From a bacterium (GTDB taxonomy: Bacteria > Zhuqueibacterota > Zhuqueibacteria > Residuimicrobiales > Krinioviventaceae), in NCBI GenBank assembly GCA_963693055.1, contig OY843751.1:544001-608000 (forward strand): 64,000 bases of DNA, written 5' to 3'. Numbering within the stretch: position 1 is the first letter of the stretch; each line of letters begins with the position of its first letter. The notes under the pieces are model-generated. The model ran no database searches. It was not told the DNA's origin and saw only the letters and a program-made list of their open reading frames with translations. This document shows positions 2,741-14,564 of the stretch, piece by piece. The position numbers and the translations under genes were made by a program.

Positions 2741-3154
2741 ATGGAAACCAAAAACAACCGTTCTCTTTATAGACAAAGTAAGCAGCGCGACAGGATTTTA
2801 GAATTATTACGTTCTACTAAAACACATCCTACAGCGGACTGGATTTATGAGAATCTGAAAAAGGAATTCCCTAATCTTAGCCTCGGAACCGTATATCGTA
2901 ACCTTTCTATTTTGGCTGAGCAGGGTTTTATTAAGAAAATTCAGTATGGCAGCACGTTTGATAGATTCGAGGCCAATATTGCACTGCATTACCATTTGAT
3001 TTGTGACAAATGCGGCAGTATTTCTGATTTTGAAATGCCGGTAGAACAGGGGTTGAATGAAAAAGCAAACCAGTTTACTGAATTTAAAGTAAAACGACAT
3101 AAATTGGAATTTTTCGGATTATGTAAATCTTGCGGTGATCTTGAGATAGACTGA
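2741..3154 (+). CDS. perR: Fur-family transcriptional repressor, PerR-like
   Basis: HPTADWIY, SLGTVYRNL, RFE...HYHLICDKCG and a second CxxC (CKSC); upstream of bacterioferritin. Confidence 0.85.
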   Translation: METKNNRSLYRQSKQRDRILELLRSTKTHPTADWIYENLKKEFPNLSLGTVYRNLSILAEQGFIKKIQYGSTFDRFEANIALHYHLICDKCGSISDFEMPVEQGLNEKANQFTEFKVKRHKLEFFGLCKSCGDLEID

Positions 3155-3313
3155 GTGAGAGGCAACCCGGGGCCAGATAGACAATTATTAATGCTTTGAT
3201 ATAATAATTTCTTTTTTGTACCTTATAATGTGCATAATATTTTTATGCGCCCTGTTTTTTATTCTCTCAAATTATTACATAAATCATCACTGAAATTCTT
3301 GGAGGAATTTGTA

Positions 3314-3808
3314 ATGCATGAAAAAAGTATAGAGCTGTTAAATAAAGCTGTTGCGGATGAAATGACTGCTGTTCATCAATATATGTATTTTCATTTTCAT
3401 TGTGACGATCAAGGCTTTGATTTGCTGGCAAACCTGTTTAAACGTACCGCTATTAGTGAAATGATGCATGTAGAACAATTGGCAGAACGTATTTTGTTTT
3501 TAAAAGGTGAAGTTGAATTACATGCTGCCAAAGATGTTGTAAAAATTCATGATGTTAAAGAAATGTTGAAAACCGCATGTGGTATGGAAGAAGCATCTGT
3601 TAAAGATTATAACATGTGGGCGAATGAATGTGCGCAAAATGCAGATTCTGTATCTAAAAAACTTTTTGAAGCACTTGTAGCAGATGAAGAAGGCCATTTT
3701 GATCAGTTTGATACCGAGCTGGAAAATATTGAAAAATTTGGCGTTCAATACCTGGCTCTGCAATCCATTGAGAGAAGTAAAGCAATGGGCGCCGGCGGCG
3801 AAGCTTAA
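3314..3808 (+). CDS. bfr: Bacterioferritin
   Basis: GGAGG RBS before ATG 3314. Ferroxidase motifs EMTAVHQY, EMMHVE (heme Met position), EEASVKDY, DEEGH. Confidence 0.88.
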   Translation: MHEKSIELLNKAVADEMTAVHQYMYFHFHCDDQGFDLLANLFKRTAISEMMHVEQLAERILFLKGEVELHAAKDVVKIHDVKEMLKTACGMEEASVKDYNMWANECAQNADSVSKKLFEALVADEEGHFDQFDTELENIEKFGVQYLALQSIERSKAMGAGGEA

Positions 3809-3996: not shown

Positions 3997-5721
3997 ATGG
4001 TTCAGGAACGATTTGAACCCAAATTGATAACCGTTATCAAAGAGGGTTATTCCAGTTCGCAGTTTTTGAGTGATCTGGTTGCAGGAATTATTGTAGGTAT
4101 TGTTGCGTTGCCGTTGGCCCTGGCGTTTGCAATTGCATCAGGTGTCAAGCCAGAACAGGGGCTTTATACGGCAATTATTGCAGGATTTTTAATTTCTTTT
4201 TTTAGTGGAAGCCGGGTGCAAATTGGCGGCCCTACCGGTGCTTTTATTGTTATTGTTTACAATATTGTTCAGAATTATGGCTATAGTGGTTTGGCTACCG
4301 CTACGGTTATAGCTGGGGTGTTGCTCGTTATTATGGGTTTTTTACGCCTTGGTACAATCATAAAATATATCCCTTATCCTGTAACGGTTGGTTTTACTTT
4401 TGGTATCGCCATTATTATCTTTGCGGGGCAAATGCGTGACCTGCTAGGATTAGATATGGAAACTGTTCCTGCTGAATTTGTTGAAAAGTGGGTTGCTTAT
4501 GCAGACCATTTTCATTCCTTTAATTTTTATGCCTTTGGAATTGGACTTTTATCCGTTTTGATTGTTATCTTTTGGCCCAGGGTAACCCATCGGGTACCCG
4601 GTTCGTTGATTGCTATTCTATTGACTACTGCAATTGTACAGATTTTTGATGTGCCTGTTGAAACAATACAAAGCCGTTTTGGAAGTGTTTCCGGTCATTT
4701 TGGTGCAATACAAATTCCAAAATTGGATTTACAACATGTCAGGAATTTGTTCTCTCCGGCGGTATCTATTGCTTTGCTGGCTGGTATAGAGTCGTTATTG
4801 TCTGCTGTCGTTGCGGATGGCATGACAGGTCGTAAGCATAGATCGAATATGGAACTTGTTGCGCAGGGGATAGCGAATATTTTTTCTCCATTATTCGGCG
4901 GCATTCCGGCAACGGGTGCAATTGCCCGAACAGCTACCAATATTAAAAATGGGGGTAAAACCCCAATAGCAGGAATTGTGCACGCTGTTGTTTTGCTGTT
5001 AATTATGCTGTTTCTGGGCAAATGGGCAGCTTTAATACCTATGGCAACCCTGGCTGGCATTTTAATTATTGTTGCATACAATATGAGCGAGTGGCATTTG
5101 TTTATTAAATTGTTCAAAAGCCCCAAAAGTGATGTACTAGTATTGTTGATTACTTTTTTTCTTACCGTTTTTGTTGATTTGATTGTTGCTATCCAGGCTG
5201 GTGTTGTGCTGGCGGCTTTATTGTTTATGCGAAGAATGACCATGGTGACACAGGCGGGTTATATTAATGGTATTGTTCAGGATGAAGAAGAACAGGACGA
5301 CCTGAACAGCCTTTCGAGAAGAATAATACCGGATAATGTTGAAGTGTTTGAGGTGAATGGACCATTCTTTTTTGGTGCGGCAGACAAGTTCAAGAGCGCG
5401 CTGTACCAGGTACAGAAAAAACCGGATGTTTTGATCTTGAGAATGCGCAAGGTGCTATCCGTTGATGCTACAGGTTTGCGTGCATTGGAGGAAGTGGTTA
5501 ATAAAACGCGTCAGGAAGGGACGGTGCTTATTTTGTCAGGTGTGCATGCGCAACCGTTGGTTGCAATGGAACGTTCGGGACTGTTGGAAAAGATAGGTAG
5601 TGATAATTTGTTTGGAAATATTGATGACGCATTAAACAGGGCCAGAGATTTGATGGGCCTTCCTGTTGTGGAACCACCGCAACCCTTTATTCCGGTTGTA
5701 AAACGGGAAATGGATAAATAA
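3997..5721 (+). CDS. SulP/SLC26 anion permease with C-terminal STAS domain
   Basis: DLVAGIIVGIVALPLALAFAIASG, GSRVQIGGPTGAF, ATGAIART; STAS GPFFFGAA...VDATG. Confidence 0.93.
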   Translation: MVQERFEPKLITVIKEGYSSSQFLSDLVAGIIVGIVALPLALAFAIASGVKPEQGLYTAIIAGFLISFFSGSRVQIGGPTGAFIVIVYNIVQNYGYSGLATATVIAGVLLVIMGFLRLGTIIKYIPYPVTVGFTFGIAIIIFAGQMRDLLGLDMETVPAEFVEKWVAYADHFHSFNFYAFGIGLLSVLIVIFWPRVTHRVPGSLIAILLTTAIVQIFDVPVETIQSRFGSVSGHFGAIQIPKLDLQHVRNLFSPAVSIALLAGIESLLSAVVADGMTGRKHRSNMELVAQGIANIFSPLFGGIPATGAIARTATNIKNGGKTPIAGIVHAVVLLLIMLFLGKWAALIPMATLAGILIIVAYNMSEWHLFIKLFKSPKSDVLVLLITFFLTVFVDLIVAIQAGVVLAALLFMRRMTMVTQAGYINGIVQDEEEQDDLNSLSRRIIPDNVEVFEVNGPFFFGAADKFKSALYQVQKKPDVLILRMRKVLSVDATGLRALEEVVNKTRQEGTVLILSGVHAQPLVAMERSGLLEKIGSDNLFGNIDDALNRARDLMGLPVVEPPQPFIPVVKREMDK

Positions 5722-5770
5722 GATTATAAATCACCGGCAGCCCTCCTGCTGGCCACCGGTGTTTGTTTTT

Positions 5771-8092
5771 CTAATGACCCAGTGTAAAACCTATTAATAA
5801 TCTTCTTGGGACTGATGGTCCATAAACATACCCTGCATCTCGGGCAATGCCTTTGTCAAAGTCTTTCTGAAAAGAGTCTGTAATATTGTACATACCGATT
5901 GAGAATGTACCATATGAATGCCCCATTACAGGCAGTTTGTAAGAAGCAACAAGATCAAAAGTTACAAAGCTTTTTGTATGTTCAAGACGATCTTGCACAA
6001 TGTATCCGGCATAGTGTGGAGCATACATGGGACCGGTATATTTTGAAATTCCAAGTAAATTGATTTTATTCGAAAGATCATATGAAAGCCGTACACTGCC
6101 ATATAAATCAGGGGTGCGGAAAATGTGTGTAGAATTGAAATCGGGTTCCGGGGAATCCAACTCGCTGTTTTGCAGGGTAAATCCGGTTGTGATTTCTGCT
6201 TTGCGTGTTCGAAAACCAACTTCAAACTCTACTCCTTTGACGACTGATCCATCGCCATTGGCACGATAAAATTCGAACTCATCGGTATTGGGATCATCTC
6301 TTTCATCCAGAATAAATGTTTTGGTAAGATCAGTATAAAATCCATTTAGACTGAACCGCAATCCATTTGTGCCCAGTATTTCTGTCCATTCTGCACCACC
6401 ATAAAAGGTTGTTGCCCGCTCTTCTTCCAAATCATCGCTATTGCGAATGATTTGACCTTCACCACCTACTTGAGTAATATGTAAATCTTCATCAAAGATT
6501 TGGGGAGGTTTAAAGCCAGTAGAAATACCACCACGTATGGTAAGAGGATTGGTGATATGCCAGCGCATAACAGCCCTGGGACTGAAAATAGCATTGTTTA
6601 TTTCAGAGTGTTTATCGATTCGGCTTCCATAAACCAGTTCAATCTGATCATTTTTATCCATTTTCCACATGTCTTGAAGGATTAATCCCAAATTGGTATA
6701 TGTTTCATCAATTATTCGATTGTAAGAAACGGCTATGTCTTTGAGTTTTTCTTGTTTGTATTGTACGCCTGCGGTTAGGAGGTGATTACTCAACAGGTAA
6801 TTTGCCTGGGCACCTGTTACCACTAGCGGATTTTCACTTTCTCCATAAGCATTAGGATCTTGCTCGGCACCATAATATGTATCACGGTTTGTTAGTGCCA
6901 GAGATGTGAAGACTTTATAATCAAGTAAGGCGCTGGGATTATGGGTCCACTTTAGTGAACCACCATATCGTTCTGTTTCGCTTGCTTCGGCAATGTCTGC
7001 TTTATGTGGAGCAAGATCAAATTTATTGCCACCCCGACGATCTTCGTGAATGAAGTGGGTTTGCAATGCCAGCTCGCCATTGATTACTGGTTTATAATAC
7101 CAGTTTAAACCAACTGCCTGATTTTCAAGTTTTCCGATTTCACTAAAACCATCGCTATTGGCATCCCAGGGATCACGATTCCTCATTGTTGCGAACAGAT
7201 ATCCACTCGAATTTCCTTTGCTATTTACTCGTGCAAGGGTAACTCCAAGCTTTTGGTCCAGATCACCATTGATGGAGCCGTTACGATAATCCAAAGCAAT
7301 GTCATTGTGAGTAGGTCGCCGGGTGATCAGGTTCACAACACCCGCAACAGCAGTGCCACCATATAAGGCTGAACCACCACCTTTAACAATTTCTACTTTT
7401 TCAATCATTTCATCAGGGAACTGTTCAAGTCCATAGACATTGGCAAGGCTGCTAATAACGGGGTCACTGTCAATAAGTACCTGGGTGTGGTGGCCTTCCA
7501 TGCCCAGCAGGCGTACCTGGGTAAAATTACAATTCTGGCAGTTTTGTTCAACTCTTACACCTGTTTGAAAGTCCAATACTTCTGCCAGGTTGTTTGCTTT
7601 TTGGGCCTGTATCAATTTTCGGGATACAACAGATGTTTTAACCGGTGCGTCTTTATAAAATTGAGGAACTCCGGTTGCTGTAACAACAACTTCTTCAGCT
7701 TTGATCACTGAGGGATTGAGTTCGAATTCAATGCTGGTTGTTTTGTTGAGGGATATTTTTACTTCTTTTTCAATAGACTCAAAACCCATCATTGATACTT
7801 TGAGTCTATACATACCTGGTTGAAGATTTGATATTTTAAATGTACCATCATGGTTGGTAGCAGCACCAAGATAAGTGCCTGTAATTAATACATTGGCACC
7901 AGGAAGCGGTTCATGACTTTCAGTGTCTAATATAACTCCAGCTAAGGTACCGTTTTGATTATTGTGATGATGACCTTTGCGGTGTTGATGTCTGTTGGTT
8001 TCCTGTGCGTATGAAATATGAATATTCAGGGATTGAAATATATATAAAACAGCGATGAACACTGCCAATTTGATAGAATAATTCCTTGACAT
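5771..8092 (-). CDS. TonB-dependent receptor (likely metal uptake) with carboxypeptidase-like N-domain and His-rich N-terminus
   Basis: Signal peptide; RHQHRKGHHH; EPLPGANV..TNHDGTF; plug with VVVTAT, CQNCNF, IEKVEIVKGGGSALYG..AVAGVVNLIT; barrel ending YVYGPSVPRR. Confidence 0.92.
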   Translation of the reverse strand: MSRNYSIKLAVFIAVLYIFQSLNIHISYAQETNRHQHRKGHHHNNQNGTLAGVILDTESHEPLPGANVLITGTYLGAATNHDGTFKISNLQPGMYRLKVSMMGFESIEKEVKISLNKTTSIEFELNPSVIKAEEVVVTATGVPQFYKDAPVKTSVVSRKLIQAQKANNLAEVLDFQTGVRVEQNCQNCNFTQVRLLGMEGHHTQVLIDSDPVISSLANVYGLEQFPDEMIEKVEIVKGGGSALYGGTAVAGVVNLITRRPTHNDIALDYRNGSINGDLDQKLGVTLARVNSKGNSSGYLFATMRNRDPWDANSDGFSEIGKLENQAVGLNWYYKPVINGELALQTHFIHEDRRGGNKFDLAPHKADIAEASETERYGGSLKWTHNPSALLDYKVFTSLALTNRDTYYGAEQDPNAYGESENPLVVTGAQANYLLSNHLLTAGVQYKQEKLKDIAVSYNRIIDETYTNLGLILQDMWKMDKNDQIELVYGSRIDKHSEINNAIFSPRAVMRWHITNPLTIRGGISTGFKPPQIFDEDLHITQVGGEGQIIRNSDDLEEERATTFYGGAEWTEILGTNGLRFSLNGFYTDLTKTFILDERDDPNTDEFEFYRANGDGSVVKGVEFEVGFRTRKAEITTGFTLQNSELDSPEPDFNSTHIFRTPDLYGSVRLSYDLSNKINLLGISKYTGPMYAPHYAGYIVQDRLEHTKSFVTFDLVASYKLPVMGHSYGTFSIGMYNITDSFQKDFDKGIARDAGYVYGPSVPRRLLIGFTLGH

Positions 8093-8225
8093 TTTCTACT
8101 CCAAGTCAGATGAAAATATTTATATATATCCTGTATTATTGGACGGAATAGGATAGAGTCCAACAATTACCCATCGCAATAAACAGGTTGAAAAATGAAT
8201 GTGTTATAATGTGAAAACAGTTGTA

Positions 8226-8603
8226 TTAGATAGAAACAGGAGGTGCTCTAAGAATAATGAAAAATGTGAGAAATAGAGACTGTAAAATGTGCGTTCGCCC
8301 AATTTTTAGCTGTTGCGCGAATTTTTGGTCAATGAGAGAGTGTATGAAAAGTATAACAAGAAAAGCCAACAGTGTAAATAGCGTGTGGCAAAGAAGAAAT
8401 CCGCTTTCAGTGTGAGAATGGCTTTGATTGGGGCTGCCAGTTTTGTTGAATGGAATTGCATGGCTGTGAACTACAATTTTACCATCAGGCAGAACGTGAA
8501 TATGGGTAAATAGCATTGTAGCTATTAAAAGCATAGACAATGCTGCAATCATGAAAATTGATATTATAGAACAAAAAAGATTTTTTCTGTTATGACAGAT
8601 CAT
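8226..8603 (-). CDS. Small two-TM His-rich membrane protein ending in RAPP (DUF2946/CruR-like putative arrest leader)
   Basis: ATG at 8603 overlaps the end of the DtxR gene; 125 aa: TM, HIH..VVHSH..HSHTES, TM, LRAPPVSI-stop. The longer 8828 start in the ORF track lies inside dtxR. Confidence 0.75.
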   Translation of the reverse strand: MICHNRKNLFCSIISIFMIAALSMLLIATMLFTHIHVLPDGKIVVHSHAIPFNKTGSPNQSHSHTESGFLLCHTLFTLLAFLVILFIHSLIDQKFAQQLKIGRTHILQSLFLTFFIILRAPPVSI

Positions 8604-9144
8604 TTTCCTGCCTAAAGTAATTTTCATCACCTGAGAAATAACATTCGATTTCGCAAACATCACATTGTTCATCTTGGTGGGTGCAATTGTAATTGTATTC
8701 TGAAAAGGCTTTGCGAAATGCAACAGCACGTGGATCATCTGAAAGGTAAAAGCCCATAAAAGATAGAATTTTGGCACTGGATTCTTTGGTAACCAGGTGC
8801 TCAATTTTGCAGGCATCTTCTTCTGCAACTGTGGGATTCACCAGCATAATCTCGGACAATAATCTTTCAAATAATCTTCTTTTCGACAATACCGCGTTTA
8901 CAAGTTGATTGCCAGTGTCAGATAGTTTAAAAAAACGGTTTTTATCTTCTAAAATATAGCCTTTTGCCACTAGTTTATTGACTGTTATGGAGACACTGCC
9001 ACGCGTTAATCCCAGGTAATTTGAAATATCTATGCTTCTTGCGTAACCCTGAGTTTTAACAAGTGTGTGTATTGCCATAAGATAATGCACTGAACTGTGG
9101 CTGAGTTCAATTTCGTCAAATTTTTTCCAAACATCTTGAATCAT
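8590..9144 (-). CDS. DtxR/MntR-family metal-dependent repressor with Cys-rich C-terminal tail
   Basis: wHTH HYLMAI..ARSIDISNYLGLTRGSVS; dimerisation EEDACKIEH; tail CTHQDEQCDVCEIEC. Confidence 0.9.
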   Translation of the reverse strand: MIQDVWKKFDEIELSHSSVHYLMAIHTLVKTQGYARSIDISNYLGLTRGSVSITVNKLVAKGYILEDKNRFFKLSDTGNQLVNAVLSKRRLFERLLSEIMLVNPTVAEEDACKIEHLVTKESSAKILSFMGFYLSDDPRAVAFRKAFSEYNYNCTHQDEQCDVCEIECYFSGDENYFRQENDLS

Positions 9145-9156
9145 GATTGCTACTTT

Positions 9157-9174
9157 TGTTTTGCATGTCAAACA
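9157..9174. promoter_or_regulatory. Putative DtxR/MntR/TroR-type operator
   Basis: Imperfect palindrome TGTTTTGCATGTCAAACA (14/18) between a minus-strand TTGTAT-17-TATATT promoter (9179-9207) and the DtxR ATG. Confidence 0.6.
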
Positions 9175-9314
9175 TTGAAATATAATGTGATTATTATAAA
9201 TATACAAGTAAAATTATGTGGTTTTTTATTTGAATATTTGTATTTTGAACAAGATTCAGATTTATTTGTACTTGATTTCTTGCAGTATGGAGAAATGTAT
9301 GAAACTTTGCCAAA

Positions 9315-9677
9315 ATGAACAACGATATTCTTGTTTTAACATCCTCGGGGCCATTAATTGATTCTGAAAATAAACAGTTCCTGGAAGATTCTTTTCATTT
9401 GTCAAAGAAAATAATCCCAGATTTGTTCTCATCGATAGCCGAAAGCTTGAAGGGCGCTTTTCAATAGGCGATGTTTTTTTTTTTTCAAATCAAAGATATA
9501 TCCCTGTGCACTGATAGAACCTATGAAAAAGTTGCAATCGTTGAGCGACAAGAGTTTCGTGATAAAATAGAGTTTTACAGAGTAGCCGCCTGGAACGCGG
9601 GATTACGGTTGAATTTCTTTTATGATTATGAGAGCGCTCTTGATTGGTTAAATACTCGAGTCCCCCCAAAGATATAA
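9315..9677 (+). pseudogene. Disrupted STAS/SEC14 (SpoIIAA-like) small protein
   Basis: Frame from ATG 9315 stops at TAG 9465. An alternative frame over about 9403-9480 reads KENNPRFVLIDSRKLEGRFSIGDVFF and rejoins through a T12 run to KVAIV..NAGLRLNFFYDYESALDWL, similar to intact 52527-52892. Confidence 0.55.
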
Positions 9678-9844
9678 TTATGGAAATATTATCATAAATA
9701 GCTGTGAAATTCTATATGATTTAAGGGACGCAAAGTTTGAATTGTATATGTGAATTGTAAGAAACCGTAGGTAGTAAAAAGGGCTTGGTATAAATATTAC
9801 TGAATTATAATCAAGCCCTTGAATGGTAATACAGCCAGGAATTT

Positions 9845-11206
9845 TTATAGATTTTTTAATTTTTCTTGCAGTTCCAAATACTCGCATAGCAAGTTGATAT
9901 TCATATTGAAAACAGTACTGTTGATTCTGTCTTTGGTGATATATTCACCACTCCATCTCACTCCGGGAATGTAATTTTTATACTTGTCATTTTTTGAAAC
10001 CCAGCGTCCTTGAGCATCCTGGCTTTTAATAATTTCCTTGATTTGTGGCTCAATTTCTAACAGACGGGCTTGTATCCCATCTTTGGTTTGCATGGGTTCT
10101 GGTAACGGAATTTTATTTTGAACAGCGTTAATGGTAATTTGACAACGTTTTTTTACTGCACTCAACGCATTACTTAGATCACTTTCATAACCGTAACCGG
10201 TTCTTCGTTCAATGTGCAAGCTGTCAGTAGTTTCTACTCTGATACGACCGCGATCGTAATAGAGGGGTTTGTTGGTATAGAGTTCAACAAAACGGGCCCA
10301 CTTGCCATTGGGGAGCTGGATATCATCCAGCCAGTTTAATGCATCTGGTATTGCAACAAGATAGTGTGGGTCATTTAGACATTCAAACAAGTCCAACAAA
10401 CTGTTCATAACACGTATAGTTACCAGGGGACAGGCAGCTGGGGGTTCAAAATCACGGGCCCAAGCCGGCTGCAGGTGTTGATTATATTGTTGTGCCCAAC
10501 CGGGTTGAGGAGGCGCAATTTGAGATATCATGAGAAAACGGCCAACTTTTTCTAATGATTGTCTATATTCAGGGTTTTTATAATATTGCCAGGCATCCAT
10601 CATGACCTGAATGCAGTCATTAATACCGCCATCATTAAAGGTGGCAAAATCGTGATAATTGCCCTGTTCAGGGTATTTGTGAGGCCAGCCTCCATCTGTC
10701 AGTTGGCTTTTTTGCATCATATCCATTGCTTTTTCAATTGAATGCGTTAGAGAATCCTCGTCAATGATTTGATCTAACTGCATTAAAAAGCGTATTGCAC
10801 TTTGAGTCTGATTATCATCAAAACTTACGATATCACTTTTATGGGTAACATTGATAGTATGGTCCCAACCACCGAGATCATTTTGACCACGGATTAATGC
10901 AAACGCAGCTGCTTTTGCGGCTTCAAGTGCGGTCTGACTCGATGTTGCGTGATATGCACGAATAAAACTCATACCCACAGCAGGTGTTCCCGGAGGCTGA
11001 ACTTCTATTGTATTATCATCGGTTCTGCTTTCGCCCCAGCGTTCAGTCATATCCAGTGTATAGCTATAAACATAGCCGCCGTGTACATTTATAGAGTAGT
11101 AATATTCTACTCCCTTTTCGATTGCGTTTTTTGCGTTTTGGACAATGTTTTGTGAAAAGGCGGTAATAGAAAAGAGGACGAAAATAGTAACTATTTTCTT
11201 TTTCAT
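9845..11206 (-). CDS. Secreted pectate lyase-like protein, PL10 (PelA/pectic acid lyase type)
   Basis: Signal peptide from ATG 11206 (GGAG RBS); SFDDNQT, GGWPHKY, ATFNDG, GWAQQY..PAWARDFEP. Confidence 0.75.
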   Translation of the reverse strand: MKKKIVTIFVLFSITAFSQNIVQNAKNAIEKGVEYYYSINVHGGYVYSYTLDMTERWGESRTDDNTIEVQPPGTPAVGMSFIRAYHATSSQTALEAAKAAAFALIRGQNDLGGWDHTINVTHKSDIVSFDDNQTQSAIRFLMQLDQIIDEDSLTHSIEKAMDMMQKSQLTDGGWPHKYPEQGNYHDFATFNDGGINDCIQVMMDAWQYYKNPEYRQSLEKVGRFLMISQIAPPQPGWAQQYNQHLQPAWARDFEPPAACPLVTIRVMNSLLDLFECLNDPHYLVAIPDALNWLDDIQLPNGKWARFVELYTNKPLYYDRGRIRVETTDSLHIERRTGYGYESDLSNALSAVKKRCQITINAVQNKIPLPEPMQTKDGIQARLLEIEPQIKEIIKSQDAQGRWVSKNDKYKNYIPGVRWSGEYITKDRINSTVFNMNINLLCEYLELQEKLKNL

Positions 11207-13352: not shown

Positions 13353-14564
13353 GAAACATCTGAAATATTGGATTTTTTCATATTGAACTATTAAATTGAG
13401 TTCAATTTTCCAAAGAGATTAAAATATTTATAAAATCTATATCATTTGCAATTGTTCTTTGACAAAATTTACTATTATAACTCGAATGCATAGGTTATAT
13501 GCCTACGAAATGGCTCAAGTGGTTAATGTAACCATACGCCGGATATTATAAACCCATGCTGCAATCACAAATTCGAAACGATTTCGGCCCATATCATAAT
13601 AACTGCACCGATCATAATCTAATACTTGCTTCATGAAGGCAAACGGTCTTTCAACTGCATTCCGAACTTTAGATAATTGCTTATTTCTTTTTACCTGCTT
13701 TGATGTCAAATTTCGGTTCCTATATCCTTTATCAAGAATACCGCAATAGACTCCTTTGCCTCGCAGGTTGCACTTGCGGGCTTTGTTCGTGTAACCTTTA
13801 TCTGCGAACACCGCATTTTCTTTTTCTGTTATCAGATCCGGAAATAGATTGGTGTCGTGAATACTTGCGCTGGTAAACTCTACTGAATGAATAATATCAC
13901 TGTCTAAATCTGTACCAATATGGCCCTTGTAGCCATAATGCGTTTTGCCACGTTTCTTTGTGAAATCTGCATCACGATCACGTTTGCTTCCTGGTTTCGC
14001 TTGTGCTTGCTTAATGGTTGCATCAACAAGGGTTCCTTTGCCAACGATTAGACCCATTTTTTCAAGCTGTTTGTTGAATTGCCGGAACAGTATTTTATCA
14101 AGACCAAGGCGAGAAAATTGTTCACGATAGCGACAGATAGTGGTCTCGTCAGGGATTGCATCAGCACTGGTCAGTTCCAGAAACAATTGAAAACTACGTC
14201 GATCCGCAATCTCTTCTTCCAGGCGAGGATCGGATAAACCATAGATACGTTGTAATAAAAAACAACGAACAATAACTAACAAATCAAATGACGGCTTGCC
14301 TGCATTTGATTTTCTGGTTTTTGATTGTTCAATACGTTCTTCAATGGGTTCAAGCAAATTTTGCCAATCAATTTTTTCTTTGATAATTTCCAGAGCTTGT
14401 TTGCTTTGGGTTTTTATATGCTTTTTGAAATTTTCATTTGCTGCTGTGGTAAACAAGTCTTCATTGTGTATTCTATTGCGGCCCATGTGAAGCTCCTATT
14501 TGTTTTTTCATACAGCAAATTAGTAAATTTTAACCTTTGATTCTAATAATATTTCAGAGGTTTC
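13353..14564 (-). mobile_element. IS5-family insertion sequence, 1212 bp, apparently intact
   Basis: 17-bp TIRs GAAACATCTGAAATATT (13353-13369) and GAAACCTCTGAAATATT (rc of 14548-14564), one mismatch; ATATA on both flanks (13348-13352, 14565-14569). Confidence 0.9.
13515..14486 (-). CDS. IS5-family DDE transposase
   Basis: LSDPRLEE, PDETTICRYR, LVDAT, HYGYKGH, ADKGY, RNAVERPF. Confidence 0.95.
   Translation of the reverse strand: MGRNRIHNEDLFTTAANENFKKHIKTQSKQALEIIKEKIDWQNLLEPIEERIEQSKTRKSNAGKPSFDLLVIVRCFLLQRIYGLSDPRLEEEIADRRSFQLFLELTSADAIPDETTICRYREQFSRLGLDKILFRQFNKQLEKMGLIVGKGTLVDATIKQAQAKPGSKRDRDADFTKKRGKTHYGYKGHIGTDLDSDIIHSVEFTSASIHDTNLFPDLITEKENAVFADKGYTNKARKCNLRGKGVYCGILDKGYRNRNLTSKQVKRNKQLSKVRNAVERPFAFMKQVLDYDRCSYYDMGRNRFEFVIAAWVYNIRRMVTLTT

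Follow-up and report, generated by a model that had tools for sequence, protein, structure and literature searches.

In SecM, ApdA, ApdP and MifM a membrane-targeting segment is followed by a RAPP-like arrest core, an arrangement shared by the leader described below; these proteins stand before sec or yidC genes, it is the export machinery that releases them, and a His cluster is not described in the parts of their accounts covered here. Stalling leaders are also known in metal control. CruR (Bp2923, DUF2946/PF11162) of Bordetella pertussis keeps a ligand–RAPP spacing of 45 ± 1–2 residues, control was weakened when five residues were added, and its export signal is dispensable (PMC9426467); arrest at its RAPP has been demonstrated (PMC12992588). 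CutF of Rhodobacter capsulatus, also a DUF2946 protein, is an exported nascent leader which responds to metal in the periplasm and, through its stalling, controls the gene that follows (bioRxiv 2025.02.05.636593). As far as the passages covered here go, copper with Cys ligands is the only case in which metal control by a stalling leader has been demonstrated. RAPP/RGPP upstream ORFs before TonB receptors, finally, are a published class (Fujiwara 2025, PMC12992588).

The window, that is, the whole 64,000-nucleotide stretch of DNA analysed, contains a leader of 125 aa (8226–8603), which belongs to a six-His R[A/G]PP family without a family name. It lies on the (-) strand, as do all the other operon features for which coordinates are given below. 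Its start overlaps the stop of a dtxR gene by 14 nt, and 133 nt separate it from the ATG, at 8092, of a TonB-dependent receptor gene. The C-terminus reads LRAPPVSI-stop; RAPP forms residues 119–122 (8238–8249) and is the predicted arrest site. Two hydrophobic segments are present, TM1 or signal anchor (about residues 11–31, 8511–8573) and TM2 (about residues 69–87, 8343–8399, from hydropathy), the latter ending 34 residues before the first Pro. Three HxH pairs follow TM1 in the order HIH-x9-HSH-x13-HSH (H34, H36, H46, H48, H62 and H64); the first two lie at 8460–8504 and the third at 8412–8420, with H64 54 residues before the Arg. The ORF is without any CxxC. A first-pass annotation had described this layout, and the position of the ORF between a DtxR gene and a TonB receptor (coordinates and Pfam matches of both neighbours agree), LRAPP three residues before the stop, the two hydrophobic segments and the lack of CxxC were all found as it had stated. 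The second of its His spacings, x13, also stood, whereas the first, given as x7, was a miscount for x9.

It is clear that the leader ORF is a real, conserved gene. Its dN/dS against the same-genus genome G001 is 0.11, and 0.07 over residues 1–98, as expected under purifying selection. Among the called genes of the genome RAPP is C-terminal in four of its five occurrences, whereas AAPP and AGPP never are (0/10 and 0/9), and 0.7 C-terminal RAPP would be expected by chance among the 5303 genes; with the low dN/dS, this contrast argues that the RAPP of the leader is not accidental. A single-sequence search of 5.8 billion proteins returned one homolog, and genome searches and profiles found the rest; the family comprises 3273 clusters at 50% identity from this phylum and Bacteroidota. 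The leader protein alone as query matched in 17 of 41 related genomes; of the 151 genomes of the phylum, 43 matched the leader profile. For the ORF and for 37 aligned members, every Pfam and NCBIfam family stayed below cut-off, and Foldseek of the leader model against PDB gave no match at E 0.001.

Six columns are invariant in the 37-member alignment: H34, H46, H48, R119, P121 and P122. The first-pass annotation had proposed a homolog comparison and had held that a RAPP not conserved would speak against its idea; HxH, terminal R[A/G]PP and synteny with CxxC-plug receptors were all found to be conserved, and 112 of 113 unique leaders end in R[A/G/S/P]PP. The sole exception is frameshifted and has RAPP in another frame. 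The seed of the leader profile was chosen with the terminal motif, although a match does not depend on the motif, since the frameshifted leader still scored 4e-19. This leader (L169:2060-2486, G010) has no uptake gene downstream and is a decayed copy or an assembly error. The motif was also present in 145 of the best 150 library matches and in 18 of 20 new leaders from a metagenome set. The His pairs vary more: the first is HxE in many Sphingobacterium members, and the third is absent in 24/112 members (22/54 in Bacteroidota). When 79 loci were fetched by receptor alone and searched upstream with a profile of own-phylum leaders only, a leader was found in 56, nearly all of them Bacteroidota and many Sphingobacterium, and 23 had no family leader. 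The same was true of 22 of the 47 metagenome loci counted (of 83; 27 were dropped without a detected CxxC frame and nine for short flanks).

The most constant feature of the family apart from its motifs is a distance. From the last His to the Arg there are 50–55 residues in all 88 members with the third HxH; among members below 50% identity this holds for 61/61 (SD 1.1), across a poorly conserved stretch, whereas the adjoining, much shorter loop varies from 5 to 18 residues (SD 2.7). In further sets the distance was 51–56 (metagenome) and 50–57 (best 150 library matches). By analogy with CruR, this fixed spacing looks like a stall-release ruler. TM1 is hydrophobic in 108 of 112 members, and K/R are richer before than after it in 108/112; the export signal and the N-in orientation are predicted from hydropathy and this K/R bias only. 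TM2 is hydrophobic in 58/58 own-phylum members, where it ends 19–35 residues before the first Pro, as against 10/54 Bacteroidota members, and the earlier proposal of sensing "during membrane insertion" cannot rest on it.

In the predicted structure of the leader (mean pLDDT 80.6, pTM 0.48) a helix at 7–31 covers TM1, strands 33–37 and 43–47 form a β-hairpin carrying H34, H36, H46 and H48, and a long helix spans 66–117; the four His would share one face of the hairpin. The ribosome tunnel holds about 30–35 residues and the membrane about 12–15, so, at their distances from the Arg, each of the six His could be in the periplasm when the ribosome stalls. Sensing outside the cytoplasm would fit this geometry and the precedent of CutF, whose exported nascent leader reads periplasmic metal; the dispensable export signal of CruR is a counter-precedent.

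With CruR the leader has in common a small size, an export signal, a RAPP that three residues separate from the stop, a fixed ligand–RAPP spacing, a long spacer (162 nt in CruR, 133 nt here) with a C>G stretch, and a TonB receptor downstream. It differs in having three HxH pairs instead of CxxC and in their position, 54 residues from the last His and 85 from the first, compared with 45 in CruR. It occurs in other phyla and before another receptor family, which has a CxxC plug, while CrtA is described as lacking conserved Cys in the part of its report covered here (PMC12914433). In contrast to CruR, a dtxR gene and a candidate operator lie upstream here, and in the representatives scanned the leaders precede CxxC-plug receptors, ZnuA/ABC-3 and DUF1007/NicO genes rather than copper-homeostasis operons. 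DUF2946/PF11162 gave no match with the leader ORF at E 1 and none with the 37 members at E 0.1, a CxxC about 45 residues before RAPP was found in 0/145 and 0/120 members, and in the ESM Atlas a DUF2946 cluster is a distant neighbour of the leader (0.93 with 127 of 256 features). The leader likely works in the manner of CruR but falls outside DUF2946, having neither a profile match nor CxxC. CutF differs further in its motifs, CxxxC and PPP, and in its dependence on EF-P. It stalls in the presence of copper, and its target is a stem-loop that covers the ribosome-binding site for a detoxifying enzyme (bioRxiv 2025.02.05.636593).

By its layout (a small membrane protein, a C-terminal RAPP and a co-oriented gene downstream) the leader appears to fit the RAPP/RGPP arrest-peptide class. 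This class, as leaders before TonB receptors, is already in print, and members of the present family are among its table rows: the source table gives them as "hypothetical protein" before "TonB-dependent receptor", at least 92 rows with IVHSHP, and includes BT_RS02460 and BT_RS02470 of B. thetaiotaomicron (PMC12992588). Two His/Cys peptides of Streptomyces were proposed as metal sensors in the same paper, and the passages covered here do not single out the His family or its spacing, metal or mechanism. We found no description of a six-His leader family in the literature searched, which was mostly open-access and took in the supplements of PMC12992588 in part.

Other RAPP leaders were seen as well. 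Three small RAPP-ending ORFs of other types, without Pfam match, occur in the genome (G000:C1:2105205-2105516, 4987370-4987663 and 2397380-2397757); two carry HNH-x4-EHHxDCP and one is His-rich, and they come first in operons for lipoproteins and TonB receptors or, in one case, for RND efflux. Tandem leader pairs precede one receptor in L133, L143, L150, L164, L165 and L013; in the four pairs with sequence (G004, G030 and two in G143) the first ends in RGPP and the second in RAPP. Leaders look interchangeable, since the same receptor family is also preceded by different RAPP/RPPP leaders with HxH and Cys (L056, L072, L194, L195 and L253).

Upstream of the leader, the dtxR gene (8590–9144) encodes a DtxR/MntR-family repressor of 184 aa with matches to Fe_dep_repr_C and Fe_dep_repress (Pfam PF02742, E 2e-11, and PF01325, E 1.5e-6) and is single-copy in the genome. 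The Cys-rich C-terminal tail, C-x6-C-x2-C-x3-C (8590–8690), is conserved, and its codons carry the ribosome-binding site of the leader. A candidate sigma-70 promoter was read at 9179–9207 (-35 TTGTAT, 9207–9202; 17 nt; -10 TATATT, 9184–9179). Similar hexamers stand in the same place in four relatives; we infer this promoter ourselves, as it is absent from the list of predicted sites. Just after the -10 box lies an 18-bp imperfect palindrome, TGTTTGACATGCAAAACA (9157–9174), a candidate DtxR operator that is conserved before dtxR in all five genomes having the gene there. In this genome the palindrome also occurs before a flavodoxin/DUF2023 pair and a second leader operon, which, together with its presence before dtxR in five genomes, is new here.

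These sites were found with an operator matrix built from the four relatives alone, without this genome, and scanned over 6.5 Mb. The site before flavodoxin/DUF2023 ranked first (30.1 bits) and that before the second leader, at 1.483 Mb, second (27.8 bits); rank 3 was a coding site, rank 4 was 9157–9174 itself (19.9 bits) and rank 6 lay before the closest receptor paralog. Two sites reached at least 25 bits, against a mean of 0.12 and a maximum of 1 with shuffled matrices. In G001, G011, G034 and G036 no operator regulon beyond dtxR was found (eight one-mismatch matches were not before metal genes), nor was DUF2023 with the query used, so the candidate regulon is one of this genome. In B. thetaiotaomicron flavodoxin/DUF2023 rises 326–598-fold without iron (PMC10434189). 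Since the palindrome stands before this iron-starvation pair as well, the DtxR is likely iron-sensing, and on this sequence evidence it likely represses the whole operon from 9157–9174 when iron is plentiful. With this palindrome, an uncultured lineage gains a candidate iron regulon.

The DtxR layer over the leader, as the first-pass annotation had it, gains a candidate operator over the promoter but is confined to five genomes and is not a family trait: most leaders have no dtxR before them, and when the upstream regions of 57 own-phylum leaders were searched for one palindrome in common, runs of A/T were all that came up. In one genome (G003, L136) only a remnant of the dtxR tail precedes the leader, behind promoter-like sequence. 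Two relatives without adjacent dtxR (L145:9423 and L147:1995) have in common a different palindrome-like box, with a GTTAGCC core, directly before the leader. A likeness of the operator palindrome to the corynebacterial MntR box, considered at first, was not confirmed among the papers listed by a literature search and was dropped. The second family copy of the genome (G000:C1:1482741-1483210, L168), with the same palindrome over its promoter, heads lipoprotein, PepSY-TM, HmuY-like, TonB receptor, DUF1007, NicO, LolA-like and ABC genes. A Fur-family gene and a bacterioferritin-like gene (2741–3808) lie 4.5 kb from the operon of the window; a ferritin-like gene is found beside dtxR in G011, too. 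A transposase-like ORF, recognised by eye, occupies 13515–14486 and has a near copy at about G000:C1:1354000.

We consider it fairly probable that the leader is a ribosome-stalling metal sensor which keeps the receptor gene transcribed until a metal, at best guess zinc, binds its six His. The TM1 anchor would bring the nascent chain to the Sec channel, and at the RAPP stall the His pairs, 54–85 residues from the Arg, would be out of the tunnel and probably past the membrane. Without metal, the stalled ribosome would cover the C-rich stretch that follows and the receptor gene would be transcribed as well. Once metal binds, the hairpin with its His and the third HxH would fold, the pull would free the ribosome, and Rho could then end the transcript within the 133-nt spacer. 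Above this switch, DtxR would repress the whole operon at 9157–9174 under plentiful iron.

The spacer is consistent with such an output. As the first-pass annotation had noted for this 133-nt spacer between leader and receptor, it is C-rich and G-poor at its 5′ end, with 10 C and 2 G in the first 45 nt; the 60 nt after RAPP contain 12 C and 3 G. Of 1130 co-oriented gene ends in this genome, 4.5% are as strongly skewed. The stretch 8188–8237 is a candidate Rho loading site by its composition and is predicted to be unstructured over 8225–8188; over its first 38 nt the spacer is C-rich and predicted unstructured both here (G000) and in G001. The 60 nt after RxPP contain more C than G in 52/58 own-phylum leaders compared with 26/82 other gene ends of the same loci, counts that include related, hence non-independent members and in which the 60 nt take in tail codons. 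Synonymous sites upstream of RxPP are not C-enriched (0.26 versus 0.30). Among Bacteroidota the corresponding numbers, 31/54 and 85/165 controls, show no bias, and Rho may thus not be the output there. A Rho-like gene is present in the genome (the query sequence was recognised as Rho by eye), and together with the rut-like stretches of own-phylum leaders it agrees with the CruR-like reading proposed earlier.

The hairpin that had been noted at 8136–8166 does fold in isolation (about 8134–8166, -11 kcal/mol, z -2.0), but when the whole spacer is folded a longer stem, 8187–8177/8141–8130, replaces it, and its 5′ arm is mutated in G001, so that it was ruled out as a conserved element. The longer stem (8130–8187) is common to G001 and weakly predicted (z -0.9 and -1.5; no compensatory changes in the arms). 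No terminator-like site was found in the 133-nt spacer, and an Rfam search of positions 5500–10000 gave nothing credible.

A stalling metal sensor could also act on translation, its ribosome melting RNA that hides the receptor ribosome-binding site in the way of SecM or CutF, or it could control an intrinsic terminator. CutF itself uses a translational output (bioRxiv 2025.02.05.636593). Blocking the ribosome footprint in the present spacer raises the predicted accessibility of the receptor start site from 0.26 to 0.47, and in Bacteroidota the gain is above 0.15 in 13 of 34 cases, while a terminator-like hairpin occurs in 15 of 53 spacers. The gain is absent, however, in the sister genome G001 (0.42 to 0.43) and is seen in only 7/48 own-phylum cases, so that a conserved switch of this kind found no support in the phylum; the gaps from leader to next gene vary from 35 to more than 400 nt, and the spacer here has no terminator-like site. 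We regard these outputs as unlikely for this locus.

The genes behind the leaders point to metal uptake. The receptor of the window (5771–8092, 773 aa; matches to Plug and TonB barrel) has a His/Arg-rich N-terminus and a CQNC plug motif at residues 185–188, both Cys of which are nearly invariant among 13 aligned homologs; no close solved structure was found for it, and a terminator-like hairpin of 11 pairs, eight of them G-C, closes the operon at 5732–5761 (terminator-like site prediction). Receptors and ZnuA-family proteins behind leaders often begin Arg/His-rich after the signal peptide (7960–8000; L135, L144 and L161). In own-phylum genomes 39 of 40 leader operons (39 loci) lead into uptake-type genes. 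The first gene belongs to the CxxC-plug receptor family in 21 and encodes an unnamed outer-membrane-like protein in 16, of which 14 have a ZnuA-family protein next; the remaining three have a porin, a PepSY/HmuY-like/receptor/DUF1007/NicO run and, behind the frameshifted leader, nothing. A ZnuA-family protein occurs in 15 of the 40, mostly with two ABC-3 permeases. Among the downstream genes, judged from representatives scanned, there was no copper chaperone, and by eye no secA, secDF or yidC in the 40 operons.

Zinc is our best guess for the metal of the leader and not a result, with a chance somewhat short of even; nickel or cobalt is a lesser possibility, and iron, like manganese or another metal, is less probable again. 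The ZnuA-family binding proteins have three His at the usual ligand places, which we take to be a zinc-type ligand set, and DUF1007/NicO is presumably a zinc importer; in the one ZnuA-type operon scanned the best NCBIfam matches were zinc AztC/AztB, below cut-off. Nickel is indicated by weak HypB_prefix_2 matches in 8/37 members, NicO in 2/40 operons and a NikR gene in the genome. The latter has no uptake neighbour within 3 kb, and no NikR link of the receptor was evident by eye among the leaderless metagenome receptor loci listed, which speaks weakly against such a link. Counts by family weakly indicate that [NiFe]-hydrogenase does not track the leader (f1, leader 9/16 and hydrogenase 1/16; f11, 10/12 and 1/12; f6, 0/18 and 11/18; f9, 0/10 and 7/10; G149 excluded), with a hydrogenase cut-off of 1e-20 that was too strict and missed this genome, which has hyp-like genes.

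In B. thetaiotaomicron BT0503 is a leader-family member, judged by eye, and BT0504 is its receptor. Without iron they rose 2.39- and 2.43-fold, respectively, and hmu more than 100-fold (PMC10434189); the near-equal rises leave their ratio unchanged, so iron does not shift read-through there. His-tag pull-downs have yielded Bt0502 as a contaminating background protein (PMC12578637). The literature searched had no paper in which zinc or Rho controls these loci.

Two readings give the leader another task. It could be a stable small membrane protein that binds periplasmic metal or passes it to the receptor, with RAPP only timing its folding or coupling expression; the two membrane segments of all 58 own-phylum members, the ordered model and the strong constraint on residues 1–98 are in its favour. 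Such a protein would leave unexplained the fixed His–Arg distance, the long spacer, the first position before unrelated uptake operons, the tandem copies and the replacement of the leader, in front of this receptor family, by RAPP leaders unrelated to it, and RAPP/RGPP is strongly avoided in ordinary proteins (PMC12992588), which makes it rather improbable. An export monitor like SecM or MifM, in which the ribosome is pulled free as TM2 inserts into the membrane and the His have a structural part, would suit the 19–35 residues between TM2 and the first Pro in the own phylum and the RAPP leaders that precede sec genes (PMC12992588). It is still harder to credit, as the genes downstream are of metal-uptake types and not sec or yidC, and 44/54 Bacteroidota members lack TM2 but retain their His pairs. 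A frame open by chance or a decayed gene, in either case without a role, is a reading for which one might cite the missing curated family and the one frameshifted relative; it is refuted by the conservation of the ORF (dN/dS, 3273 clusters and invariant motifs) and has virtually no probability. Taken together, the observations of the first-pass annotation were confirmed and its interpretation is partly supported.

A bolder form of the stalling-sensor reading is possible but doubtful: a Cys-free, six-His nascent-chain sensor of periplasmic zinc (or nickel/cobalt), with a ruler of 50–55 residues acting via the Sec channel, as a main and so far overlooked regulator of metal uptake in Bacteroidota and this phylum, placed here in series with an iron-sensing DtxR. 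The receptor would then be made only when both metals are short.

If the leader is such a sensor, a His-only family would extend stalling-leader control to another metal and to gut Bacteroidota. The family is accessible in B. thetaiotaomicron, which has two copies, BT0503–BT0504 and the neighbouring pair, and from the fixed His–Arg spacing the behaviour of insertion mutants can be predicted exactly. The leaders may also offer a handle on the cargo of orphan CxxC-plug receptors, including PG2008 of P. gingivalis.
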